This document shows, piece by piece, positions 13,177 to 61,517 of a stretch of 64,000 bases of DNA. The notes under the pieces were generated by a model that made no database searches, was not told the DNA's origin, and saw only the letters and a program-made list of their open reading frames with translations. The stretch comes from Candidatus Woesearchaeota archaeon (GTDB lineage Archaea > Nanobdellota > Nanobdellia > Woesearchaeales > GW2011-AR9), in the NCBI GenBank assembly GCA_018657845.1, contig JABHWJ010000033.1, forward strand, positions 12,834-76,833, written 5' to 3'. Made by a program: the position numbers and the translations under genes. Positions within the stretch are counted from its first letter, which is position 1. Every line of letters starts with the position of its first letter.

Positions 13177-13218
13177 AATAAACAATAAAAATCAAGAAGT
13201 TCTATTTAAAGATTACTA

Positions 13219-25354: not shown

Positions 25355-25579
25355 ATGGAATGTCATAGCCCTAAGTGTGCAGGAACAATGAAAATTGTAG
25401 TTGGTGTTCTTATTTTGTTAGCTGCCTTTGTATGGCCAAAGTTATCGGGTATTGATAATTGGGTTGCATTTTTAGGTGCGTTAATGGTTTTGTTTGGAGT
25501 CATGAAATTTTTCCATCCCAGTTGTGGATCTGGAGAATGTTGTCTTCCTGATAAACCAGCAAGCAAAAAAAGAAAATAA
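25355..25579 (+). CDS. Small membrane protein with a Cys-rich tail
   Basis: 74 aa with two TM helices and C-terminal 'CGSGECC'. Confidence 0.35.
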   Translation: MECHSPKCAGTMKIVVGVLILLAAFVWPKLSGIDNWVAFLGALMVLFGVMKFFHPSCGSGECCLPDKPASKKRK

Positions 25580-25597: not shown

Positions 25598-26431
25598 TTA
25601 TTTTTTAAAACTTTCTAGAACTGAATTAACTTTGTCAGGATAATCTTCTAAAATTCTTTCCCTAATTTTATCTGGAGAAACAACATCTCTCGAATTAGAA
25701 TTCATTTCATCAGATACATCAACAGAAGTTAGGTGGACAAGACCTTCAAAGTCGAGTGTAATGCCACCTTCCAATATTCTTTGACCTGCCTTAACAAATC
25801 TTTTTCTTGTTAAATATTTATTAACTCCTTTTTTACTAGGATCTACTTCGCAAAATTCTGGGTGATAGTGTTTCAACAATTTTACTCCATTAGGATAACC
25901 AGGAGAATAAGAATGAATGATTACACCTTCTGGGGGACCTTCATATAAATCACTTTTCTCAATAATACCTTCCAATAATCTTTGATTAATTTTACCTCGA
26001 GATTTTAAAGGTACTTGAGGAATGATCTTAGAAACTCCCAAAAGGTCAAGCCATTCGTCTCTTTCTTCAGGATGTAAGAAACGACTCTCTTCTTCATTAT
26101 AAATACCAATAGTTAACATTTTATCAACAAATTTTGAATCATAGGGAATATGTCCATACCCTTTATGTACAAATTCTCCAAAAATAACCAATTCTTCGGG
26201 TAAGGCCAACAATGAGGCATACAACTGATTATAAACAAATTTTCTAAATTCATCAAAATAATATTTTGTTTTTTTTATTTGTCCTCCGCGGCTCCATAAT
26301 TGAATCTTATATCCAGAGTTACGTAAAGAAACATTTGATCCATCAACTTTTTCATAAACAAATAAATTTTCATCAATCATAGGTCTACCATGATAATAAT
26401 CTTTAATTGAAGGAAATTTAAATGAGCTCAT
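25598..26431 (-). CDS. ATP-dependent RNA ligase, Rnl2-like nucleotidyltransferase domain
   Basis: Covalent nucleotidyltransferase motifs I 'EKVDGSN' (compare T4 Rnl2 EKIHGTN), III 'IFGEFV', IV 'EGVIIHS' and V 'VKLLKH'; 277 aa with no C-terminal domain. Confidence 0.65.
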   Translation of the reverse strand: MSSFKFPSIKDYYHGRPMIDENLFVYEKVDGSNVSLRNSGYKIQLWSRGGQIKKTKYYFDEFRKFVYNQLYASLLALPEELVIFGEFVHKGYGHIPYDSKFVDKMLTIGIYNEEESRFLHPEERDEWLDLLGVSKIIPQVPLKSRGKINQRLLEGIIEKSDLYEGPPEGVIIHSYSPGYPNGVKLLKHYHPEFCEVDPSKKGVNKYLTRKRFVKAGQRILEGGITLDFEGLVHLTSVDVSDEMNSNSRDVVSPDKIRERILEDYPDKVNSVLESFKK

Positions 26432-27162
26432 CTTTTTCCTTCCTCTACTAAAAAATATTCTCTGGCGTTAACTGGACGTAAATAATCAAGATAACGAGCA
26501 CCATCCGGCGAAGATAAAAATAAATTTAAAGCTTTGTTTACATGGGCATCAGAAGATAATACTATTGTCCGATAAACATTCTCTAATGGAGAACCATTGT
26601 CTTGTTTGATATTCTCTGCAAATTGTTCAGCAGATTTTTGTGCAAGAAACATTGAAGCATCAATAATATCTAAATCTGTTGGAGAAATTGGATCTTGCTC
26701 AGCTTTTTTTCCAGTAATGGTAGAACTAAACAATTCTCTCAAACCATAACGCATTTCATCAAAACCAGATAATTCGCTAGTATTATATCTAAATAACAAG
26801 TTTTCGTCTCTTGCAGTTAAATTAAAACCACGAACGGCACTAAAGATAATATCTCCCAAACCATTACGATAACCATTTGAAGATAAATGATAATGATGAT
26901 CTGCACATTCCTGAGTAACCCTATCTGTAACTACAAATTTAACTTTTCCCATCCCCCTTGCAGACTCAGCAATTTGTTCTAAACCTACTGCTCCTGTCTT
27001 CTTTCCAGACTTAACAAAGGCTTTTTCTATATCCATTATCGCAGAAGTATCCAAAACAATAACTGGAATTACCCCTAATTCTTTAGTGTGTGGACTAGAT
27101 GAACAATAGAAAGATTCTAAATAATCATACAATAAATGTCGCCTCTTTACTGCCATATACAT
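26428..27162 (-). CDS. PIN-domain nuclease-like protein (244 aa) overlapping the RNA ligase gene
   Basis: 'IPVIVLDTSAIMD' (PIN motif 1) and 'TIVLSSDAHV' (C-terminal TxD-like motif) plus central acidic residues; 4-nt ATGA overlap with the ligase. Confidence 0.5.
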   Translation of the reverse strand: MYMAVKRRHLLYDYLESFYCSSSPHTKELGVIPVIVLDTSAIMDIEKAFVKSGKKTGAVGLEQIAESARGMGKVKFVVTDRVTQECADHHYHLSSNGYRNGLGDIIFSAVRGFNLTARDENLLFRYNTSELSGFDEMRYGLRELFSSTITGKKAEQDPISPTDLDIIDASMFLAQKSAEQFAENIKQDNGSPLENVYRTIVLSSDAHVNKALNLFLSSPDGARYLDYLRPVNAREYFLVEEGKR

Positions 27163-27289
27163 AAATTGTTATGACTATTTATAAGCTTTTTGGTTTTAAC
27201 TACTAGTTAGTAGTTTCCAGCATTTTTTCTGTAAATAACCCATATTCTTTGAGAAATCACATAGAATCTTGGCTAATCTACAAATATAA

Positions 27290-27658
27290 CTAAGACTCAA
27301 ATCTACAAACTAAACTTTTTTGTAACTCATCTTCATTTAAACCCAATTTAGAAATCACCATCTTATGAACGGTTTCAGGATCTTGAGTTTCGGGACCAAG
27401 ATATAATGTATGAAAATATTCGATGGGGTCTGCTCTTTTAAAAATAACACAAGTTACAATTTCTCCTAATTCTTCGGCAGCACAAAAAGGATGTACTCCT
27501 TTGTATTCTCTTCCCTTATTCCGCTTAAGGAGTTGATCTAAGTTATATGCGGGAGGCCCAGACCTAGAACTTTGCATACTCACTTGACGTGCAGAATGCT
27601 CATGAGTATACCAATCTAAATCCATAGATAAATGTTCTAAATGCTTTGGCTTATACAT
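27290..27658 (-). CDS. Hypothetical protein (122 aa)
   Basis: ORF lying between the PIN gene and rpsJ. Confidence 0.4.
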   Translation of the reverse strand: MYKPKHLEHLSMDLDWYTHEHSARQVSMQSSRSGPPAYNLDQLLKRNKGREYKGVHPFCAAEELGEIVTCVIFKRADPIEYFHTLYLGPETQDPETVHKMVISKLGLNEDELQKSLVCRFES

Positions 27659-27772
27659 ATTATCAATGTGATAATAAGTAGTTATAAATCTTTCGTTTAT
27701 TTTGTTACTAAATAGTGATTACATTAAAAAATAAATCTCAAAACACAACTTTCATAAAACAAATCAGAATTC

Positions 27773-28087
27773 TTAAGCATCAACCATTTCAATTTCAATA
27801 TTAAGATTATCAGGAATCGGAACTCTCATCACCAAACGTAAGGTTCTTTCATCAGCACCTAAATCAATTAGCCGTTTATGCACTCTCATTTCATACCGTT
27901 CCCAAGAAGCTCTACCTTCACCACAAGGACTTTTTCTGGTGGTAATTTTCAACTTCTTAGTTGGTAATGGAATCGGACCCTTAAGATCAACACCAGTCTT
28001 CTCCGCGATTTCTCTAATGCTATCACAGATCTGATTGATCTTAGCTATGTCCATGCTTGCCAACTTTATTCTTGCTCTCTGTGCCAT
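27773..28087 (-). CDS. rps10: Ribosomal protein S10
   Basis: '[41 protein letters not shown]' is the canonical S10 sequence; downstream of tuf. Confidence 0.9.
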
Positions 28088-28179
28088 TTTTTATTTATCC
28101 ACAATAAACCTTCGTTCACCATGGGTTGTTTATAAACTTTTTCATTTTTTGAATAAAAAAAATAAAATTAAAAAGAGGT

Positions 28180-29472
28180 TTAAAGCTCTTTTTTAACTAA
28201 ATCCATACACATCCCTGCAGCTACAGTAGTTCCAGAGTCACGAATTGCAAACCTAGACATCTGTGGGATTTCGCCGTTCTTCTCGATAACCAATGGTTGA
28301 ACTGGTATTAATCTAACAAGAGCAGCATCTCCATTTCTTAAGATGTCTTTGTTTTCGGTAACTTCTTCACCGGTAGCAGGATTAATCTTTTTCAAGATTT
28401 CTGCAAATCTACAAGCCACTTGTGCAGTGTGAATGTGGAATACAGGTGTATAACCAACAGTAACAACACTTGGGTGACTCATGATAACAATTTGTGCAGT
28501 AAATTCAGTAGCTACAGTTGGAGGATTGTCTGAAGGTCCTAATACGTCTCCTCTGGCAATATCTTTTTTACCAATTCCTCGTACGTTAAATCCTACGTTG
28601 TCTCCAGGTTCAGCTTTCTGAACTTGCTCGTGATGCATTTCAATAGTTTTACATTCACCGGAAATACCTTTACCTTCTCTTCCAGGTACAACTGTTACTT
28701 TATCTCCAATTTTCATTACACCGGTTTCGATTCTTCCAACAGGTACAACTCCGATACCAGTGATGTTATACACATCCTGAATTGGTAGTCTTAATGGTAA
28801 GTCGGTAGGTTTTTGTGGAACATCAAATTTGTCGATAGCTTGTAATAAGGTATCTCCATCCCACCAAGATAACTTCTCAGTTTTCTTAACTATGTTGTCT
28901 CCAGGTAGAGCTGCAAGAGGTAAGAATCTAATGTCGTCTACTTTCCATCCAGCCGGAGCTGCATGTTTTTTAACTTCTTCAACAACTTCTTTATATCTTG
29001 CTTCACTCCAGTCTACTCCAGAAATGTCCATTTTGTTAACAGCAACGATTAACTGTCCTACACCAAAAATCTTAGATAATTTCAAGTGCTCGATAGTTTG
29101 TGCATTTACACCATCGTTAGCAGCAACAACTAGAACTGCACAGTCTGCTTGAGAAGCGCCTGTAATCATGTTCTTAATGAAGTCTCTGTGTCCAGGAGCA
29201 TCGATAACTGTAAAATAATATTTGTCCGTATCGAATCTCTTGTGAGCTAGGTCAATTGTAACTCCTCTTTCCTGCTCTTCTTTTAAGTTATCCATAACGA
29301 AAGCGAATTCAAATCCACCTTTTCCAAGCTGTTCTGCCTTCTCTTTCAGTTTTCTCATTGCTTGCTCACCGATATTTCCAGAATCGAATAATAGTCTACC
29401 AACAGTGGTAGATTTACCGTGATCTACGTGACCGATAAACACTAAATTGATATGTTCTTTTTCTTTTGCCAT
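28180..29472 (-). CDS. tuf: Translation elongation factor 1-alpha (aEF-1alpha)
   Basis: '[27 protein letters not shown]', 'DAPGHRDF', 'NKMD'. The likely start is the internal Met at 29472 rather than the ORF start at 29529. Confidence 0.95.
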
Positions 29473-29581
29473 TGTTAAATCCTCCTCGTATTCGAGTATT
29501 ATTATTACTTTGTTGTGTTTTATGATCATTTATAAAGCTTTTGGAAATTTTGTCTTAAAATTTTTAAAAAACAGAAAAAAA

Positions 29582-29885: not shown

Positions 29886-31097
29886 TCACAATTCTCTTCT
29901 AAACATCTTACGTTTATACCTTCCCCCTGGTAACATCTCAGTTCTTGCTTCTACAAACTGTTGATAGTCTCTTGGTTTAGAAGATAGTTCTGATTGGGTA
30001 GATACTGAAGAATAAACTGGAGCACCAATCTCAACTGGTCTTTCTGCGCCCAAAGATGTTCCTAATGCAGAGATTAACCTGCCCAAGTCTCTTTCTCTTG
30101 GACTTACAGAAAGATTAAATAAAATGGCTTCACGGACAGATTCAGGAACACCTTTTCCAATCATTGTTTCTTCAGCCACATCAAAAATTATGGAATTCTC
30201 TCCTTCATTTGCAATTGTAGGTGCAACAATCATTCCTGTCGTTAAATAAAGATCAGTAGTAGTTTTTGAAAAAATATCACTTGGAATTGAAGAATCTTCA
30301 AAAAATGTTTCGGGAGCAAAATAGTCTAGAGTCCCAATCTTGGGCAGAGCATTTGCAAAACTAACTACAAAAGATCTCTCATTGGCTTCACGGAAAGAGA
30401 GCCTATACAAATCAGATCCAGTAACTCGTGAATTACCAAAATCCGTAACTGTGGTTCTTTGTCCATCAGACATAATATTCTTAGGAGTTATATCTCCATG
30501 AATAACGTTCTCTTTGTGAATTTTTTGAAGAGTTAATGCTGAATCATAAGATATTTTCAATGCAGATTCTAATGTTAATCCTTTCTCTACTAAATCATAA
30601 GTTGGTTCTCCTGGGGCTTCATCCATTTCTGTCGACATGAAAATATATTTATCAACGACAGTAAATTTCCTATCACGATATGAAACTACTCCTTCAACAC
30701 CCTGTAATGATCGTAAAATTACTCCTTCAATAATTCCTCCCACTACATGTAAATGGTCTGATTTTGAAAGTGTGAAATCAATCGACTGATCACCTTCTTG
30801 TAACCTATAACTCTTCCCACCAAGATGGTCTATCCTAACATTGTGGTGTACTCCCTCAAGTGGAACTAATGGTTTTTTACTAAATGCTAAAACTTTACGT
30901 ACGCCACCATAAGGACTTTTAGTTATTACACCAAACGAACCGGAATCACGACATTGTCCAAATACAGTTTCAAATGTTCTTTGATCTATAAGTTTAGTTG
31001 GATCAGGAACTGTATACCTTACTCCATGTGACTTAACTAAGGATCCTATTTCAGTTTGTTGTAAACCAGATCTTGTCATTTGATATTTCTTCCTCAT
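29886..31097 (-). CDS. Eukaryotic-like protein-kinase-fold protein (atypical ePK) with a novel ~170-aa N-terminal domain
   Basis: Catalytic loop 'VIHGDITPKNIM' (HxD...N) and 'VTDFGNS' (DFG motif) in the C-terminal half. Confidence 0.6.
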   Translation of the reverse strand: MRKKYQMTRSGLQQTEIGSLVKSHGVRYTVPDPTKLIDQRTFETVFGQCRDSGSFGVITKSPYGGVRKVLAFSKKPLVPLEGVHHNVRIDHLGGKSYRLQEGDQSIDFTLSKSDHLHVVGGIIEGVILRSLQGVEGVVSYRDRKFTVVDKYIFMSTEMDEAPGEPTYDLVEKGLTLESALKISYDSALTLQKIHKENVIHGDITPKNIMSDGQRTTVTDFGNSRVTGSDLYRLSFREANERSFVVSFANALPKIGTLDYFAPETFFEDSSIPSDIFSKTTTDLYLTTGMIVAPTIANEGENSIIFDVAEETMIGKGVPESVREAILFNLSVSPRERDLGRLISALGTSLGAERPVEIGAPVYSSVSTQSELSSKPRDYQQFVEARTEMLPGGRYKRKMFRREL

Positions 31098-31210: not shown

Positions 31211-33406
31211 CTAAGCACCCAATGATCCTTCACTCAAACCTTTTCTGCTAACAATTTGGTTCCGAACTTTATCCTGTAATTCTCCAGGTAATCGTTCAAA
31301 GCTCTGATCCATCAAAGAACTGTTTCCACGTCCACCCGTAGCACTTCGTAAGTCATTACTCCAACCAAACATTTCTGCAACTGGCATCTTTGCTTGAATA
31401 ACAGTTATGTCTCCTTCTTGGTTCATGTCCAATAGCTGTCCTCTTTTAGAACTAACCAATTTAGAAACTTCTCCCATGTGGACATTAGGTGTTTCTATCC
31501 TCAGGACTTGTAATGGTTCATACAAGATAGGTGCAGCCTGCATCATAGCTCCCTTGATACTTTCTCTAACAGCAGGATAAATCTGAGCTGGGCCTCTGTG
31601 AATAGTGTCTTCATGTAACTTCACATCTTTCAAACGCACAACTACATTTACACACGGCTCTTTAGCTAATGGGCCAGCTTTCATAACATCTTCAAAAGTA
31701 TCTAAGACCATTTCCATAACCTCATTAATATGAACAACCCCTCTTGTTTCCTCGAGTATGATATTTCCATTGATCATTCCTTTGACATTACCTGCACTTT
31801 TTGCATCCCAACCAATACTTCTAAAAGCCGCCACTACTGTTTCGTCCTTTTTCTTGTATCTTCCTTGGGAAATCTTATTCTCCTTAATTATCTCAGCAAT
31901 ATCTTCTGGCATTGGCTCAACAATCATGTAAAATTTATTGTGTTTATTTGGAGATTTTCCTTCTATTTCAGGACTTTCCTTAGTAATAGTTTCTCTATAT
32001 ACCACGATTGGTGAAGAGGTTTTAATTTCAACTCCTTTTTCACTTCTAATTCTGTTTTCAATGACTTCTAGGTGTAATTCACCCATACCATGCATTAAGT
32101 GTTCTCCTGTTTCTTCGTTAATCTCAACAACAATAGTTGGATCTTCTTTTTGTACTTGACGAAGAACTTCAATTAATTTAGGTAAATCTGCAGGTTTAGT
32201 AGCTTCAACTGCTTTGGTAACTACTGGATCAAAGATATGTGAAATCTTCTCAAAAGGTTCTGCTTTTCCTCCAGAAGTAACAGTTTCTCCTGGCATTCCT
32301 GATTTCAATCCCGCCACCCCAATAATATTTCCTGCAGGGACATTGTCAACAATTTCTCTTTTTGCCCCATTGTAAACATATACTTGTTGAACCCTTCCAG
32401 GAGAGTTAGCCATATTCAAGAAAACTTCTTCTCCCTTTTTCATTGTTCCACCAAAAAGTCGTCCAGCAGCAATTTCTCCCGCTTGTGGATCAACAACAAC
32501 TTTAGTGATTACAAAAAATAATCGTCCATTAGGATCACATTCGATCAAAGATTTTCCTTCGGCACTTTCTAAATCTCCATGCCATAATCTTGGAATTCTA
32601 TACTTTTGGGCTTGCACTGGGTCAGGGCTATGTTCAATAACCATGTCCAAAACTACTTCGTGAATTGGTGCCTTCTTGGCCAAAGCTTTAACTTTTTCTT
32701 TAATCTCTTCTTCAGTCCCACTATAGGCATCAATAATATCTTTGAAAGAAACTCCTTTCTTCTGCATGTAAGGTAATGAAATTCCCCAATTATGAAAAGC
32801 ACTTCCAAAAGCAACTGTTCCTTTTTCAATACTAACTTGCCATTTTTCTTTATACTCTTCTGGTGCAACACTTTTAATCATCCGATTTACTTCAGTAATA
32901 TATTTAACAAATCTCTGTTGCATCTGTTCTGGAGTTAACTTTAATTCCTTGATTAATCGGTCAGTTTTATTGATAAACAAAACTGGCCTAACCAGTTCTT
33001 TTAGAGCTTGTCTTAATACTGTTTCAGTCTGTGGCATTGCTCCTTCAGAAGCACAAATTAAAACGATTGCTCCATCTACTGCCCTCATTGCTCGAGTTAC
33101 GTCTCCACCAAAATCAACGTGACCTGGAGTGTCAATTAAATTAATTAAAAATTCTTTTTCATCTACATTATGGACCATAGAAACGGATGCAGAATCGATA
33201 GTAATTCCTCTTTCCTGTTCGTCTTCATGAAAATCTAAGTTTCTTGCCTTACCTGCAAGCTCTTCACTCATCATTCCAGCTCCTGCTAATAAATTATCAG
33301 AAAAAGTTGTTTTTCCGTGATCAATATGTGCACAAACCCCAATATTTCTAATCTGTTCGGGACTACCTGCAAGTCTCATTACCTTATCTGTCATTTTCTC
33401 TGCCAT
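31211..33406 (-). CDS. fusA: Translation elongation factor 2 (aEF-2)
   Basis: 'NIGVCAHIDHGKTT', 'DTPGHVDF', and the diphthamide-site region 'HEDTIHRGPAQIYPA'. Confidence 0.95.
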   Translation of the reverse strand: MAEKMTDKVMRLAGSPEQIRNIGVCAHIDHGKTTFSDNLLAGAGMMSEELAGKARNLDFHEDEQERGITIDSASVSMVHNVDEKEFLINLIDTPGHVDFGGDVTRAMRAVDGAIVLICASEGAMPQTETVLRQALKELVRPVLFINKTDRLIKELKLTPEQMQQRFVKYITEVNRMIKSVAPEEYKEKWQVSIEKGTVAFGSAFHNWGISLPYMQKKGVSFKDIIDAYSGTEEEIKEKVKALAKKAPIHEVVLDMVIEHSPDPVQAQKYRIPRLWHGDLESAEGKSLIECDPNGRLFFVITKVVVDPQAGEIAAGRLFGGTMKKGEEVFLNMANSPGRVQQVYVYNGAKREIVDNVPAGNIIGVAGLKSGMPGETVTSGGKAEPFEKISHIFDPVVTKAVEATKPADLPKLIEVLRQVQKEDPTIVVEINEETGEHLMHGMGELHLEVIENRIRSEKGVEIKTSSPIVVYRETITKESPEIEGKSPNKHNKFYMIVEPMPEDIAEIIKENKISQGRYKKKDETVVAAFRSIGWDAKSAGNVKGMINGNIILEETRGVVHINEVMEMVLDTFEDVMKAGPLAKEPCVNVVVRLKDVKLHEDTIHRGPAQIYPAVRESIKGAMMQAAPILYEPLQVLRIETPNVHMGEVSKLVSSKRGQLLDMNQEGDITVIQAKMPVAEMFGWSNDLRSATGGRGNSSLMDQSFERLPGELQDKVRNQIVSRKGLSEGSLGA

Positions 33407-48544: not shown

Positions 48545-48632
48545 AGCCCCCGCCGAGATTTGAACTCGGGATCTCCGGTTATCCGTCTTGAGAGATACAA
48601 GACCGACGCATTAGCCACTATGCTACGGGGGC
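48545..48632 (-). tRNA. tRNA-Thr (anticodon TGT) with a 15-nt intron at the canonical 37/38 position
   Basis: Reverse complement: acceptor GCCCCCG/CGGGGGC, D-arm GCATAGTGGCTAATGC, anticodon stem TCGGT/ACCGG with loop CTTGTA[intron TCTCTCAAGACGGAT]A, T-arm CCGAGTTCAAATCTCGG. Confidence 0.7.
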
Positions 48633-48747
48633 AAGATTAATTGAATTCTAATTAAGTATTTATTAACTTTTCTATCCTAAAAAAGAAACTGATAATAAAT
48701 CTCCTAAACTCACAAAACTTATTAACTACACCCTTTTCAAAAATTAT

Positions 48748-54108: not shown

Positions 54109-54165
54109 AGATTCTAATTTATTAAATTATATTTTTTAAATTTATTAACTGTGAGGAACTGTAAA

Positions 54166-56055
54166 ATGTCAAATATACTAAAAGAAATTGTTAAGATATT
54201 ACCAGAAGGTAAAATCTCTGAAGCTACTTTTGAAGCTGCCAATATTGTACTTTATACCAAAGACAAAGAATACTTCTTAGACAATAAAGGAACCATTAGG
54301 GATGCTGTTCGTCAATTCAAAAAAAGAATTGAACTGAGACCAGACCCTTCTACAACCATGCCCTTAGAAGATGCTGAAAAAAAGATCAAAGAAATCCTTC
54401 CTGAAGATGCAGGAGTACAAGAATTAATTTTTGATGCCCCTAGATCTATTGTTATCATTCACGTAGAAAAACCTGGAATTGCTATCGGAAAACAGGGTTC
54501 ATTATTACAAGATGTTAAAAAAGAAACCCTTTGGGTTCCTGTAATCAAAAGAATTCCTCCAATAAGATCAAAATTAATTGAAAGCATTCGTGCTGTCCTT
54601 TATGAAAATGCCACAGAGCGTAAGAAATTTCTTAATACAACTGGCCACCGGATTTATGATGGTTGGCTCAGAGAGAAAAAACATGAATGGGTTAGAATTT
54701 CCTTCCTTGGTGCAGCCAGACAAGTAGGAAGAGCTTGTTTCTTATTACAAACTCCCGAATCAAGAATTCTAATTGATTGTGGTATCGACCCTGGAGAAGA
54801 TGGTCCAGAATCATATCCATTTCTTGATGCTCCGGAATTTAATATCTCTGAGTTAGATGCAGTAATTGTCTCTCACTCCCATTTAGATCACTCTGGATTA
54901 ATTCCTTATTTATTTAAATTTGGATACCAAGGACCAATCTATTGTACTCTCCCTACTCGGGATGTTATGTCTTTATTACAATTAGACATGGTAAAAATCC
55001 AAAGATCAGAAGGTAAAGATCCCATCTTTACTTCAGAAGATATCAAAAATATGGTTCTTCATACCATCACCGTAGAGTACGATGAAGTAACTGACATAAC
55101 TCCAGATGTAAGATTAACTTTTTACAATTCTGGCCACATCTTAGGAAGTTCTCTTGTTCATTTAAACATTGGTAATGGGCTCCATAATTTTGTGTACACT
55201 GGAGATTTAAAGTATGGAAGAACTAATGTTTTAGAACCAGCCAACACCCAATTTCCTAGAGTTGAAACCTTAATGATTGAAGCCACCTATGGTGGAAAAG
55301 ACAACATCATGGCCGAACAAGAAGCTGATGAATACATGATCAAAGTCATCCAAGATACTTTTGCTAGGGAAGGAAAAGTCCTTATGCCTGTACTTGGATC
55401 TGGTCGTGCCCAAGAAGTTATGGTCATCATAGAACGTCTAATGCGTGAAGGAAAGATCCCTAAGGCCCCGGTTTACATAGATGGGATGCTGTGGGACATA
55501 ACTGCTATCCACACCGCGTATCCAGAATTCCTTAACCGGAACATTAGGCAACAAATCTTCCATAAAGATAATAATCCTTTCTTATCTGAAATCTTCAAAA
55601 GAGTTGGATCACATAAAGAAAGAAAAGGAGTTATGTTAGAAACTGGGGCTTGTTTAATCTTAGCAACTTCAGGTATGCTTATGGGTGGACCATCAGTAGA
55701 ATATCTTAAGGGATTGTCAGAAAACAAAAATAATTCCTTAATCTTCTCTTGTTACCAACCACCTGGAAGTATGGGTCATCGGATTAGGGCTGGAGAAAAA
55801 AACATTGCCATGCAAGTGGACGGAAAAACACAAATGATCCAGATGAAGATGGAAATCCACAAAGTGGAAATAACTAACCACTCCGATCGAAGACAATTAA
55901 TGAACTATGTTAAGAGATGTAATCCTTCTCCAAGAAAAGTGATTGTAGTTCATGGAGAGTCGTCTCGATGTCTAGACTTGGCTTCTTCTATTCACAAACA
56001 GAATAGAATAGAAACAGTTGCTCCAAAGAATCTGGAAACAATTAGGATAAGGTAA
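54166..56055 (+). CDS. fttA: aCPSF1/FttA: KH, metallo-beta-lactamase and beta-CASP ribonuclease (transcription termination factor)
   Basis: MBL motif 'HSHLDHSG', beta-CASP motifs, N-terminal KH region. ATG at 54166 with 'gaggaa' 8 nt upstream; the ORF track start at 54151 is a GTG. Confidence 0.9.
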   Translation: MSNILKEIVKILPEGKISEATFEAANIVLYTKDKEYFLDNKGTIRDAVRQFKKRIELRPDPSTTMPLEDAEKKIKEILPEDAGVQELIFDAPRSIVIIHVEKPGIAIGKQGSLLQDVKKETLWVPVIKRIPPIRSKLIESIRAVLYENATERKKFLNTTGHRIYDGWLREKKHEWVRISFLGAARQVGRACFLLQTPESRILIDCGIDPGEDGPESYPFLDAPEFNISELDAVIVSHSHLDHSGLIPYLFKFGYQGPIYCTLPTRDVMSLLQLDMVKIQRSEGKDPIFTSEDIKNMVLHTITVEYDEVTDITPDVRLTFYNSGHILGSSLVHLNIGNGLHNFVYTGDLKYGRTNVLEPANTQFPRVETLMIEATYGGKDNIMAEQEADEYMIKVIQDTFAREGKVLMPVLGSGRAQEVMVIIERLMREGKIPKAPVYIDGMLWDITAIHTAYPEFLNRNIRQQIFHKDNNPFLSEIFKRVGSHKERKGVMLETGACLILATSGMLMGGPSVEYLKGLSENKNNSLIFSCYQPPGSMGHRIRAGEKNIAMQVDGKTQMIQMKMEIHKVEITNHSDRRQLMNYVKRCNPSPRKVIVVHGESSRCLDLASSIHKQNRIETVAPKNLETIRIR

Positions 56056-57090: not shown

Positions 57091-58350
57091 ATGTCAGAGA
57101 TTACTAACAAAGTTCTTGAGAAAATCAAGCCTACCAAGAAAGAACAACAAAAGTTCTCTAAAATCATTTCTACTTTTCTTAATAAACTGAACTCTAAACT
57201 AAAACCTCTTCAAGCCCAAGCCATTTTAGGAGGCTCTGGCGCTAAAGATACTTGGCTTTCTGGAAACCATGATATAGATATCTTCGTTCAATTTAACTAT
57301 TCAAAACATAAGAACAATTCTGCAGGATTATCTGATCTTCTTGATCCCATAATCAAAAAACTATTTCCTAAAAGAAAACGTATTCATGGTTCAAGAGATT
57401 ACTTCCAAATAAAATACCAAACTATAGAATTTGAAATTGTTCCTATTCTCAAGATATCCAACGCCCAGCAAGCGCTTAATATCACTGATGTTTCTCCCCT
57501 CCATTCAAAATGGGTTAAAAAGAATGCTAGCAAAATTACTGACGAGATTAGATTGGTAAAACAATTCTGCAAAGCCAACAAACTTTATGGCGCAGAATCC
57601 TACATTACTGGTTTCTCTGGATATATTTTGGAAATTCTTACTACCCATTATGGCTCATTTAAAACTCTGCTCCAGAAATCTCTCCATTGGGAAAACAGAG
57701 ATATTTTTGACTTAGAAAAACATTACAAAAACAAAATCCAAGCACTTCACAACATCAATAGATCAAAATTAAATTCTCCCCTGATTATCGTTGATCCTGT
57801 TGATAAAAACAGGAATGCTGCCGCAGCCATGTCATTAGAAAAATTTCTTCTCTTCAAAGAAAAAGCTAGAGAATATCTCAAAAAACCAAGTTTAAAATCC
57901 TTTGAGAAAGAAACCATTACTTTCAAAAAATTAGAACAAAATACCAAACACAATCTTATCTATCTTGAAGTTTCTCCTAAAAAGGGTAAAGAAGATGTTG
58001 TTGGTACCAAATTTCTAAAAGCATTCCTATTCTTAAAGAAACAACTTAAAGATTTTGAGTTATCCGAAGCTGACTGGGATTGGAATAAAAAAGGAAAAGC
58101 TATCTTCTATTTTATTACAGAAAAAAGAAGGATTGAACCTTTCTTCATTAGATCAGGCCCTCCCTTAAAGATGGAAGAGTTTGTCAAAGACTTCAAAAAG
58201 AAAAACAAAGAAACCTTTGAACAAACTGGAAGGGTTATGGCCAAAGTTCCCCGAAAACACGTTGAACTAGAAAAACATGTAAAAGAAATTCTTAAAGATT
58301 CTTATGTAAAAGAAAGAATAAAAGAAATTAAAGTTTTGAAGTTCGGTTAG
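57091..58350 (+). CDS. cca: Archaeal class I tRNA CCA-adding enzyme
   Basis: 'LGGSGAKDTWLSGNHDIDIFVQF' nucleotidyltransferase motif (G[SG]...[DE]h[DE]h) typical of archaeal CCA enzymes; 419 aa. Confidence 0.8.
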   Translation: MSEITNKVLEKIKPTKKEQQKFSKIISTFLNKLNSKLKPLQAQAILGGSGAKDTWLSGNHDIDIFVQFNYSKHKNNSAGLSDLLDPIIKKLFPKRKRIHGSRDYFQIKYQTIEFEIVPILKISNAQQALNITDVSPLHSKWVKKNASKITDEIRLVKQFCKANKLYGAESYITGFSGYILEILTTHYGSFKTLLQKSLHWENRDIFDLEKHYKNKIQALHNINRSKLNSPLIIVDPVDKNRNAAAAMSLEKFLLFKEKAREYLKKPSLKSFEKETITFKKLEQNTKHNLIYLEVSPKKGKEDVVGTKFLKAFLFLKKQLKDFELSEADWDWNKKGKAIFYFITEKRRIEPFFIRSGPPLKMEEFVKDFKKKNKETFEQTGRVMAKVPRKHVELEKHVKEILKDSYVKERIKEIKVLKFG

Positions 58351-61313: not shown

Positions 61314-61402
61314 TGCCCTCACGAGGACTCGAACCCCGGTTACAGGCTTTCTGCTTTTTCTTCAACCGCAAGCCTGTGTCCTATCCACTAGACGATAAGG
61401 GC
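61314..61402 (-). tRNA. tRNA-Arg (anticodon GCG) with a ~17-nt intron at position 37/38
   Basis: Reverse complement: acceptor GCCCTTA/TGAGGGC (with G-U), D-arm GTCTAGTGGATAGGAC, anticodon stem CAGGC/GCCTG with loop TTGCGG[intron]A, T-arm CGGGGTTCGAGTCCTCG, discriminator A. Confidence 0.65.
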
Positions 61403-61517
61403 AATAACTTCTAGCAATCAGATTTCTTTAAAAAATTACCTGTTGTAGCATTCTCTCCCGCAGATGTTTATGATTTCTTTCCTCCAAAAACAAAAAAAAC
61501 TTAGGGAGGAAACTAAA

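Follow-up and report, generated by a model that had tools for sequence, protein, structure and literature searches.

Partnerships between a nuclease and a ligase are already known from the kinetoplastid editosome, HARP-Rnl3, Pnkp/Hen1, and EndA/RtcB, and so are the superfamilies to which the components described here belong. In kinetoplastid editing, a Rnl2-type ligase acts downstream of a metal-dependent endonuclease. Outside kinetoplastid RNA editing, Rnl2-type ligases have no known biological role (PMC4599027). Genes for HARP (homologs of Aquifex RNase P), the PIN_5 type of protein-only RNase P, are reported from the same genomes as those for the ATP-dependent ligase Rnl3, and frequently from positions near them (Seshadri & Gopalan 2025, PMC12153264). 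For HARP-Rnl3, a role in processing tRNA or small RNA is suspected, and a toxin-antitoxin idea has also been floated (PMC12153264). According to PMC4411300, Pnkp/Hen1, Pnkp1-Rnl-Hen1, and EndA-RtcB likewise provide operon- or pathway-linked rejoining of RNA broken by endonucleases. Here, a nuclease-ligase gene pair is described from a stretch of 64,000 nucleotides (nt) of a Candidatus Woesearchaeota archaeon (assembly GCA_018657845.1, contig JABHWJ010000033.1, positions 12,834 to 76,833), referred to below as the window. The window holds one copy of each gene. Both are encoded on the minus strand, the first specifying a PIN-like metal-dependent nuclease of 244 amino acids (aa) counted from its first ATG (26428-27162) and the second a Rnl2-type ATP-dependent RNA ligase of 277 aa (25598-26431). 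The original prediction for this locus had suggested an RNA cut-and-reseal module. Its PIN-like fold, acidic tetrad, and strict adjacency of the two genes stand; the supposed lack of a C-terminal domain in the ligase does not, a 122-aa open reading frame (ORF) nearby does not belong to the module, and the option of a toxin or defence function is disfavoured.

The pair is a putative self-contained operon of Woese-, Pace-, and Nanoarchaeota (DPANN archaea). Its genes are adjacent and co-directional in all of the approximately 30 assessable loci, whichever of the two is taken as the starting point. On each of 7 contigs (7/7) with ligase homologues of 39-46% identity, the ligase is directly preceded on the same strand by a homologous ORF of 227-263 aa. 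Scanning GTDB with the ligase alignment, one genome for each species, yielded at least 18 loci; among the matches listed, the nuclease gene lies directly upstream in 17/17 assessable cases, the ligase of locus L019 being situated at a contig end. Most of these listed loci are labelled Woesearchaeota, Pacearchaeota, or Nanoarchaeota, with two labelled Methanosarcinales and three given as "archaeon" only. Vice versa, the ligase gene is immediately downstream in 9/9 loci found from the nuclease side, which comprise representatives P0041, P0096, P0066, P0049, and P0138, as well as four metagenome loci. Profile E-values of these representatives range from 2e-19 to 3e-5, with relatives at 2e-8 and 3e-5 among them.

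The linkage persists down to 22% identity for the ligase and about 20% for the nuclease. Over 26 loci, pairwise identity averages 32% in the ligase and 24% in the nuclease, and the two sets of values are correlated (r = 0.79). Spacing is tight as well: 8 of the 12 gene-called pairs overlap by 4-38 nt, 3 more leave no more than 3 nt between the genes, and the widest distance is 100 nt, in L010. In the DPANN loci examined, neither family is seen without the other. In contrast, none of ten ligase relatives from viral contigs (24-30% identity) has a nuclease partner within 3 kb.

Two observations concern individual loci. L016 (CAYWRI010000010.1) and L018 (CAZCXW010000021.1) are metagenome-assembled genomes (MAGs) titled "uncultured Methanosarcinales archaeon", and both carry the pair. 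Their labels are probably wrong, since the proteins are 43-50% identical to Woesearchaeota ones and the synteny matches Woesearchaeota loci: L018 shares the rpsJ/EF-1alpha arrangement, and L016 has an adjacent integrase gene. In L046, the ligase gene downstream of the distant nuclease relative P0049 (3585-3968) has an in-frame stop after 71 codons, past which the sequence resumes in the same frame; loss of function as a pseudogene, a mistake in the assembly, or recoding may lie behind this.

As for the ligase, Pfam PF09414 (RNA_ligase) matches the 277-aa protein with an E-value of 8.7e-14 and 52.5 bits against a gathering cut-off of 27, a similarity well above what chance would produce, and the domain is present in all homologues. 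The nucleotidyltransferase motifs named in the original prediction are all located in the protein, namely EKVDGSN at residues 27-33 (motif I), IFGEFV at 83-88 (III), EGVIIHS at 168-174 (IV), and VKLLKH at 183-188 (V). A phmmer search of PDB with the single ligase sequence gave only spurious matches to WD40 repeats, and a search with a ten-homologue profile gave Naegleria Rnl5 and T4 Rnl2 with E-values of about 1e-3. When the family profile was aligned by hhalign with T4 Rnl2, whose reference sequence had been verified against PDB 2hvq beforehand, the probability was 83.6% and the E-value 8e-6, with residues 4-247 placed against T4 residues 2-300; the identity of the 277-aa ligase to T4 Rnl2 is about 19-24%.

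According to this alignment, both proteins share the same order of domains, an N-terminal nucleotidyltransferase (NTase) domain followed by an all-helical C domain, which is also the order of other PF09414 ligases such as kinetoplastid REL1/REL2. The NTase domain of the window ligase covers residues ~18-200, where K28 (motif I), R48 (Ia), E86 (III), E168 (IV), and K187 (the first lysine of motif V) are equivalent to K35, R55, E99, E204, and K225 of T4 Rnl2, respectively. The helical C domain covers residues ~200-277, with R211 and D238 equivalent to R266 and D292, the Arg-Asp pair that forms the C-domain salt bridge of T4 Rnl2 (PMC4599027). Judging from these alignments and the predicted model, the 277-aa protein is a compact Rnl2-type ligase that includes the C domain, which is assigned because residues ~200-277 are helical in the model, PHROG 548 ("RNA ligase") aligns over residues 4-270, and the hhalign match extends into the C domain of T4 Rnl2, to T4 residue 300. 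The claim that the ligase has no C-terminal domain is thus wrong. Its NTase fold resembles that of RNA ligases more closely than that of DNA ligases or capping enzymes, the two assignments that would have spoken against the original prediction.

Differences from T4 Rnl2 concern size, one motif, and host. The phage enzyme has 334 aa, with its C domain at residues 244-329, compared with 277 aa here. Across 26 loci, K28, D30, G31, N33, E86, E168, and G169 are invariant (26/26), R48 is found in 25/26, and position 187 is Lys in 24/26 and Arg in 2/26. The second motif V lysine, K227 in T4 Rnl2, is however replaced by Tyr189 in the window ligase and by Tyr, Leu, Trp, or Phe in 26/26 loci, although this assignment depends on the alignment. 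The window ligase is, in addition, archaeal (DPANN) and always accompanied by a PIN nuclease, a partner that its viral relatives lack. Membership in two other ligase families was rejected. The Rnl3 model TIGR01209 scores 20.3 bits against a cut-off of 136.9. Naegleria/Deinococcus Rnl5 possesses an OB-like domain at its N-terminus and lacks a C domain, whereas in the window ligase NTase strands start at residue 18 and the helical Rnl2-type domain follows; the alignment with Naegleria Rnl5 (NgrRnl) begins at residue 168 of the latter.

The upstream protein contains the PIN-like acidic motifs noted earlier, VIVLDTSAIMD (34-44), TDLDIIDAS (162-170), and IVLSSDAHV (200-208), and these hold residues that are invariant across its family. 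When 1.84 billion representatives were searched exhaustively with a profile, 137 relatives came up at E <= 1e-3, including 54 at E <= 1e-10; most of the relatives are 190-260 aa long. The predicted catalytic residues D38, E85, D163, and D205 are conserved in 99%, 100%, 99%, and 98% of the 137 relatives, respectively, followed by S160 (98%), H207 (96%), H89 (94%), and K153 (93%). Recurring family motifs are hhLDT[GS]AIIDxE, ExxxH, NGRPEIS, RYD, KKxxxDxISxxD, and LSxDxH.

The AlphaFold model of the nuclease has medium confidence (predicted local distance difference test, pLDDT, 75.6; predicted template modelling score, pTM, 0.79), residues 96-133 being poor, and it has the alpha/beta/alpha PIN fold. 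In the model, D38 ends strand 1, E85 belongs to the helix that comes next after strand 2, D163 marks the N-terminus of a helix, and D205 stands just past strand 3, an arrangement usual for PIN domains. The acidic tetrad of a PIN-like protein is present, as judged from sequence and predicted secondary structure. The figures listed for the model are 8.9 for SiRe_0806, 8.8 for VapC15, 8.6 for Nmd4, 8.3 for Fcf1/Utp24, and 8.2 for Nob1, as well as 8.2 over 135 residues for Aquifex HARP. Foldseek against PDB reported nothing significant for the model, its top, non-significant match being a HARP (7e8k, E 0.23).

Established family models do not capture this protein. The nuclease has no match at threshold in Pfam or NCBIfam and no genuine sequence match in PDB, whether a single sequence, a 10-sequence profile, or a 70-sequence profile is used, and ten sampled relatives have no Pfam match. 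Sub-threshold Pfam matches among 70 relatives belong to PIN_12 (14, best E 4e-4), PIN_4 (5), DUF4411 (4), PIN_6 (3), PIN_5 (3), and PIN_2 (2). Taken with the model, these sequence data support well, though not beyond doubt, a PIN-like metallonuclease family that lies outside current models.

PIN nucleases are metal-dependent and leave 5'-phosphate and 3'-hydroxyl ends, as in HARP/PRORP and Nob1, and classic ATP-dependent ligases join exactly such 5'-phosphate/3'-OH ends. Nicks in duplex RNA are the preferred substrate of Rnl2-type enzymes, which need their C domain to bind it (PMC4599027). With these properties, the pair is, on balance, probably a cleavage-ligation module with matched 5'-phosphate/3'-OH chemistry, whose nuclease and ligase would act sequentially on the same RNA. 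The PIN-type endoribonuclease would cut the RNA, leaving a 5'-phosphate and a 3'-OH; the ligase, self-adenylylated on K28, would pass AMP to the 5'-phosphate and then reseal the RNA at the 3'-OH/5'-P break, which would most likely be a nick in duplex or folded RNA. Since the ends made by a PIN nuclease are those used by an ATP-dependent ligase, the pair would be chemically self-sufficient and would require neither kinase/phosphatase healing nor RtcB chemistry. Pnkp/Hen1, Pnkp1-Rnl-Hen1, and EndA-RtcB, in contrast, deal with 2',3'-cyclic phosphate/5'-OH ends and need either such healing or the 3'-phosphate ligase RtcB. The window pair includes the nuclease itself and has no healing or methyltransferase component.

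The most likely role of this putative module is housekeeping processing or repair of a structured, stable RNA that serves translation, tRNA being the leading candidate substrate. Candidate jobs would be excision with subsequent rejoining, circularisation after a cut at the 5' end (a proposal made for HARP-Rnl3), or repair.

The genomic context, obtained by clustering of neighbouring ORFs and Pfam annotation, suggests a link to tRNA or translation. A gene of ~480 aa with GatB_N and GatB_Yqey domains follows the ligase gene at a distance of 29-42 nt in seven loci: L021 (3791-5230), L022, L023 (3794-5230), L025 (3758-5194), L026 (3076-4542), L027 (3739-5196), and L029 (3803-5224). A gatB/E-like gene is also nearby in L024 and in L020. 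A gatD gene with Asparaginase and GatD_N domains stands directly upstream of the pair in L026 (280-1569) and L029 (964-2244), and close by in L025 and L027. The resulting order in this divergent subgroup, gatD-PIN-rnl-gatB/E, occurs in loci of Pace-, Woese-, and Nanoarchaeota and has survived deep divergence, since the ligases of the subgroup are just 30-58% identical. Elsewhere, rpsJ adjoins the pair in four loci (the window, L003, L008, and L010), EF-1alpha in three, and pth2 is directly upstream of it in L012.

Two of these neighbours have features of their own. The ~480-aa gatB-like gene stands beside gatD and yet lacks the GAD insertion of the 623-aa GatE found in L007; by this comparison, it may be a shortened GatE. 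In L020, an ORF of 383 aa with a LAGLIDADG domain (1319-2467) separates the ligase gene from the gatB-like gene. As these genes are only 29-42 nt apart elsewhere, it gives the impression of a homing endonuclease that has been inserted into the operon.

Several points weigh against sequential action on a translation-related RNA. DPANN genomes are dense in translation genes, and for this reason the neighbours suggest the link without proving it; some of these associations could be due to chance or inherited synteny. No conserved RNA gene was found beside the pair by ARAGORN and Rfam in 20-22 loci. A tyrosine recombinase gene adjoins the pair in L005, L007, and L047. Finally, because the second motif V lysine is replaced throughout the ligase family, catalytic details may differ from those of T4 Rnl2.

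Because of the published co-occurrence of HARP with Rnl3 (PMC12153264), HARP membership of the nuclease was tested, using Aq_880 (identical to PDB 7f3e) and two further HARP sequences as references. At the sequence level, it was rejected. TIGR03875 does not match the nuclease, PF08745 (PIN_5) is sub-threshold in 3/70 family members compared with 14/70 for PIN_12, and hhalign of the 70-sequence profile with the three HARPs gives a probability of 22% and a pairwise P of ~1e-3, the latter coming from the generic N-terminal PIN half. A relaxed hhalign run is colinear over four motifs (D38=D7, E85=E51, S160xxD163=S139xxD142, and LSSD205=VSAD160), its score, however, being no higher. The resemblance in size, helical insert, and ligase linkage serves as an analogy and a lead only. 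HARP is marked by a spike-helix domain, a dodecameric state, and 5' cleavage of pre-tRNA; the helical insert of the nuclease model is partly of low confidence.

On the level of gene systems, HARP-Rnl3 likewise links a small PIN nuclease (~200 aa) with an ATP-dependent RNA ligase in the genomes of prokaryotes, and its 5'-P/3'-OH end chemistry matches that expected for the window pair. The two also differ: the window nuclease is no recognisable HARP, and the window ligase is of Rnl2 rather than Rnl3 type. HARP and Rnl3 genes are mostly divergent and co-localised in only a third of the archaeal genomes that have both (PMC12153264), whereas the genes described here are always co-directional and usually overlap. 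Their hosts, moreover, are DPANN archaea, from all of which HARP is reported to be absent (PMC6380272).

A special form of the cleavage-ligation reading takes the PIN protein as a DPANN counterpart of HARP that would cut tRNA 5' leaders or similar sites, with the Rnl2-type ligase in the role proposed for Rnl3, circularising or repairing those RNAs. The similar size (~200-245 aa), a PIN core whose second and third acidic residues are separated by a helical insert, the colinear motifs, the published HARP-Rnl3 linkage (PMC12153264), and the embedding of the pair in tRNA-linked gatD/gatB-like operons all fit such a sub-case. The failed family models, the low hhalign probability, the pairwise P carried by a generic half of the protein, and the reported absence of HARP from DPANN do not, and proteins of the RNase P ribonucleoprotein are reported from all archaeal genomes (PMC6380272); altogether, it appears unlikely. 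A wider version, which we regard as doubtful, is a protein-only cut-and-rejoin system in which a HARP-like, structure-specific tRNA PIN nuclease and a joining or circularising Rnl2-type ligase would work beside EndA/RtcB or RNase P or, in some DPANN, replace them. Its substrates would be unusual, split, permuted, or intron-bearing tRNAs, e.g., tRNA-Gln, at which the gatD-PIN-rnl-gatB/E order hints, and, if true, it would provide the first assigned role of a Rnl2-type ligase outside kinetoplastid editing.

Other explanations depart from housekeeping RNA processing altogether. The original prediction had left room for a toxin or defence function, and in a toxin-antitoxin or defence cassette a VapC-like PIN toxin would cut tRNA or rRNA while the ligase repairs the cut or binds the toxin. 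The pair is indeed a tight two-gene cassette at varied genomic positions, an integrase-type recombinase gene adjoins it in the three loci named above, a LAGLIDADG gene has been inserted in L020, and a similar idea was raised for HARP-Rnl3 (PMC12153264). However, PADLOC has no match for the nuclease, the ligase, or the 122-aa ORF, and a small DNA-binding antitoxin gene is lacking, the only conserved partner being the ligase. In comparison with VapC-type toxins of VapBC systems, the window nuclease is ~100 aa longer, contains a helical insert, and has no Pfam PIN match at threshold; the pair also has no upstream antitoxin gene, and the partner is an enzyme. Furthermore, the nuclease accompanies 0/10 viral ligase relatives, the window contains a single copy of the pair, and the pair has been kept through deep divergence in gatD/gatB-like operons and beside rpsJ in streamlined genomes, with the catalytic residues of both proteins intact at all loci except L046, where the ligase has its in-frame stop. 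Missing PADLOC matches, partnerless viral ligases, and translation-gene contexts thus disfavour this option and make it quite unlikely.

Repair of RNA-DNA hybrids or of DNA containing ribonucleotides would combine a structure-specific 5' nuclease with a ligase for nicks having an RNA 3'-OH. In PMC5397189, Rnl2- and Rnl5-type ligases are described as sealing nicks with RNA 3'-OH strands, and Deinococcus radiodurans without Rnl5 as sensitive to ionising radiation. The recurrent neighbours of the pair, however, are translation or tRNA genes rather than DNA-repair genes; this alternative is very unlikely. Least convincing is the view that the two proteins have unrelated functions and are co-transcribed by historical accident. 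It draws on the circumstance that cooperation of nuclease and ligase on one substrate is something we infer. Adjacency in every assessable locus, found in either search direction and down to ~22% ligase and ~20% nuclease identity, is difficult to reconcile with accident, as are the correlated divergence of the two proteins, the overlapping reading frames of most pairs, and the observation that neither family occurs alone in the DPANN loci examined; such an accident would be highly improbable. Sequential cleavage and ligation of one RNA is the reading retained here as the best one.

Within the window, transcription on the minus strand (25598-29529) runs in the order EF-1alpha (28180-29529), rpsJ (27773-28087), the 122-aa ORF (27290-27658), the 244-aa ORF, and the 277-aa ORF. 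The last three ORFs and the neighbouring rpsJ lie where the original prediction placed them, and reading of the sequence bears out the ATGA (26428-26431, minus strand) in which the stop codon of the nuclease gene overlaps the start codon of the ligase gene. This overlap suggests translational coupling of the two genes. The true start of the nuclease is likely to be the second ATG at 27156, which gives 242 aa; the NCBI gene call (P0011) has the same length and starts there as well. A/T-rich TATA-like boxes, read by eye, separately precede rpsJ, the 122-aa ORF, and the 244-aa ORF. The one before the nuclease gene, TTATAAATA (27176-27184, minus strand), stands only 18 nt away from the first ATG and ~25 nt ahead of the second. 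Because of the latter distance, the nuclease-ligase pair is probably transcribed as its own leaderless two-gene message, apart from the 122-aa ORF and rpsJ. An oligo-T tract, TTTTCTTTTTTT (25565-25576, minus strand; by eye), is found ~22 nt past the ligase stop and is a possible archaeal terminator. The ligase, the nuclease, and the product of the 122-aa ORF exist in exactly this form in public data for a Candidatus Woesearchaeota MAG, under HOC13_03945, HOC13_03950, and HOC13_03955, and all three are annotated as "hypothetical protein".

The 122-aa ORF was considered as a third component of the module and rejected, as no homologue exists in any related locus (~24 loci). It also has no match in Pfam, NCBIfam, PHROG, or PADLOC. 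By these comparisons, it is an orphan neighbour outside the module. Its own TATA-like box is situated ~27 nt before its ATG.

Further genes of the window include one for a 403-aa protein with a weak Pkinase domain (E 1.5e-9; 29886-31097, minus strand), located between the EF-1alpha gene and an ORF of 731 aa (31211-33406). In L003, an EF-2/EF-G-like gene in the vicinity of EF-1alpha has the same length as this ORF. An archaeal CCA-adding enzyme (tRNA_NucTransf2; 57091-58350, plus strand) and an FttA/aCPSF1-type beta-CASP ribonuclease (54151-56055, plus strand) are also encoded, and no RtcB was found among the ten large window ORFs scanned.

Rfam reports three tRNAs in the window. Those at 48545-48632 and 61314-61402 (minus strand) have 88-89 nt, one of them being given a four-base anticodon by ARAGORN. 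These two of the three tRNAs probably carry introns. All three genes are preceded by an A/T-rich TATA-like box whose centre lies ~29-30 nt before the 5' end of the mature tRNA (13177-13210, 48633-48665, and 61403-61436; minus strand). As the spacing between box and tRNA is constant in all of them, it suggests tRNA leaders of a few nt or none. Leader-poor tRNA transcripts have been reported for Nanoarchaeum. If tRNA leaders are indeed short or absent, this would bear on how much RNase P-type processing the organism needs.

In the literature searched, coverage of which is incomplete, there is no description of this PIN family, of a compact Rnl2 subfamily with an altered motif V, of their obligate pairing in a DPANN operon, or of its insertion between gatD and gatB-like genes. 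The PIN-like family alone comprises at least 137 clusters at 50% identity without a Pfam model. A strictly linked and putatively translationally coupled nuclease-ligase operon in genome-reduced archaea offers a clean test case for the role of Rnl2: both partners are small and should express easily, and some of the operons point to tRNA metabolism. The pair may also inform the meaning of the HARP-Rnl3 linkage, which is itself open (PMC12153264). If the cut-and-rejoin activity proves true, archaeal RNA processing would have a second, ATP-dependent route of RNA joining, which might explain how unusual tRNA genes are handled in some DPANN.

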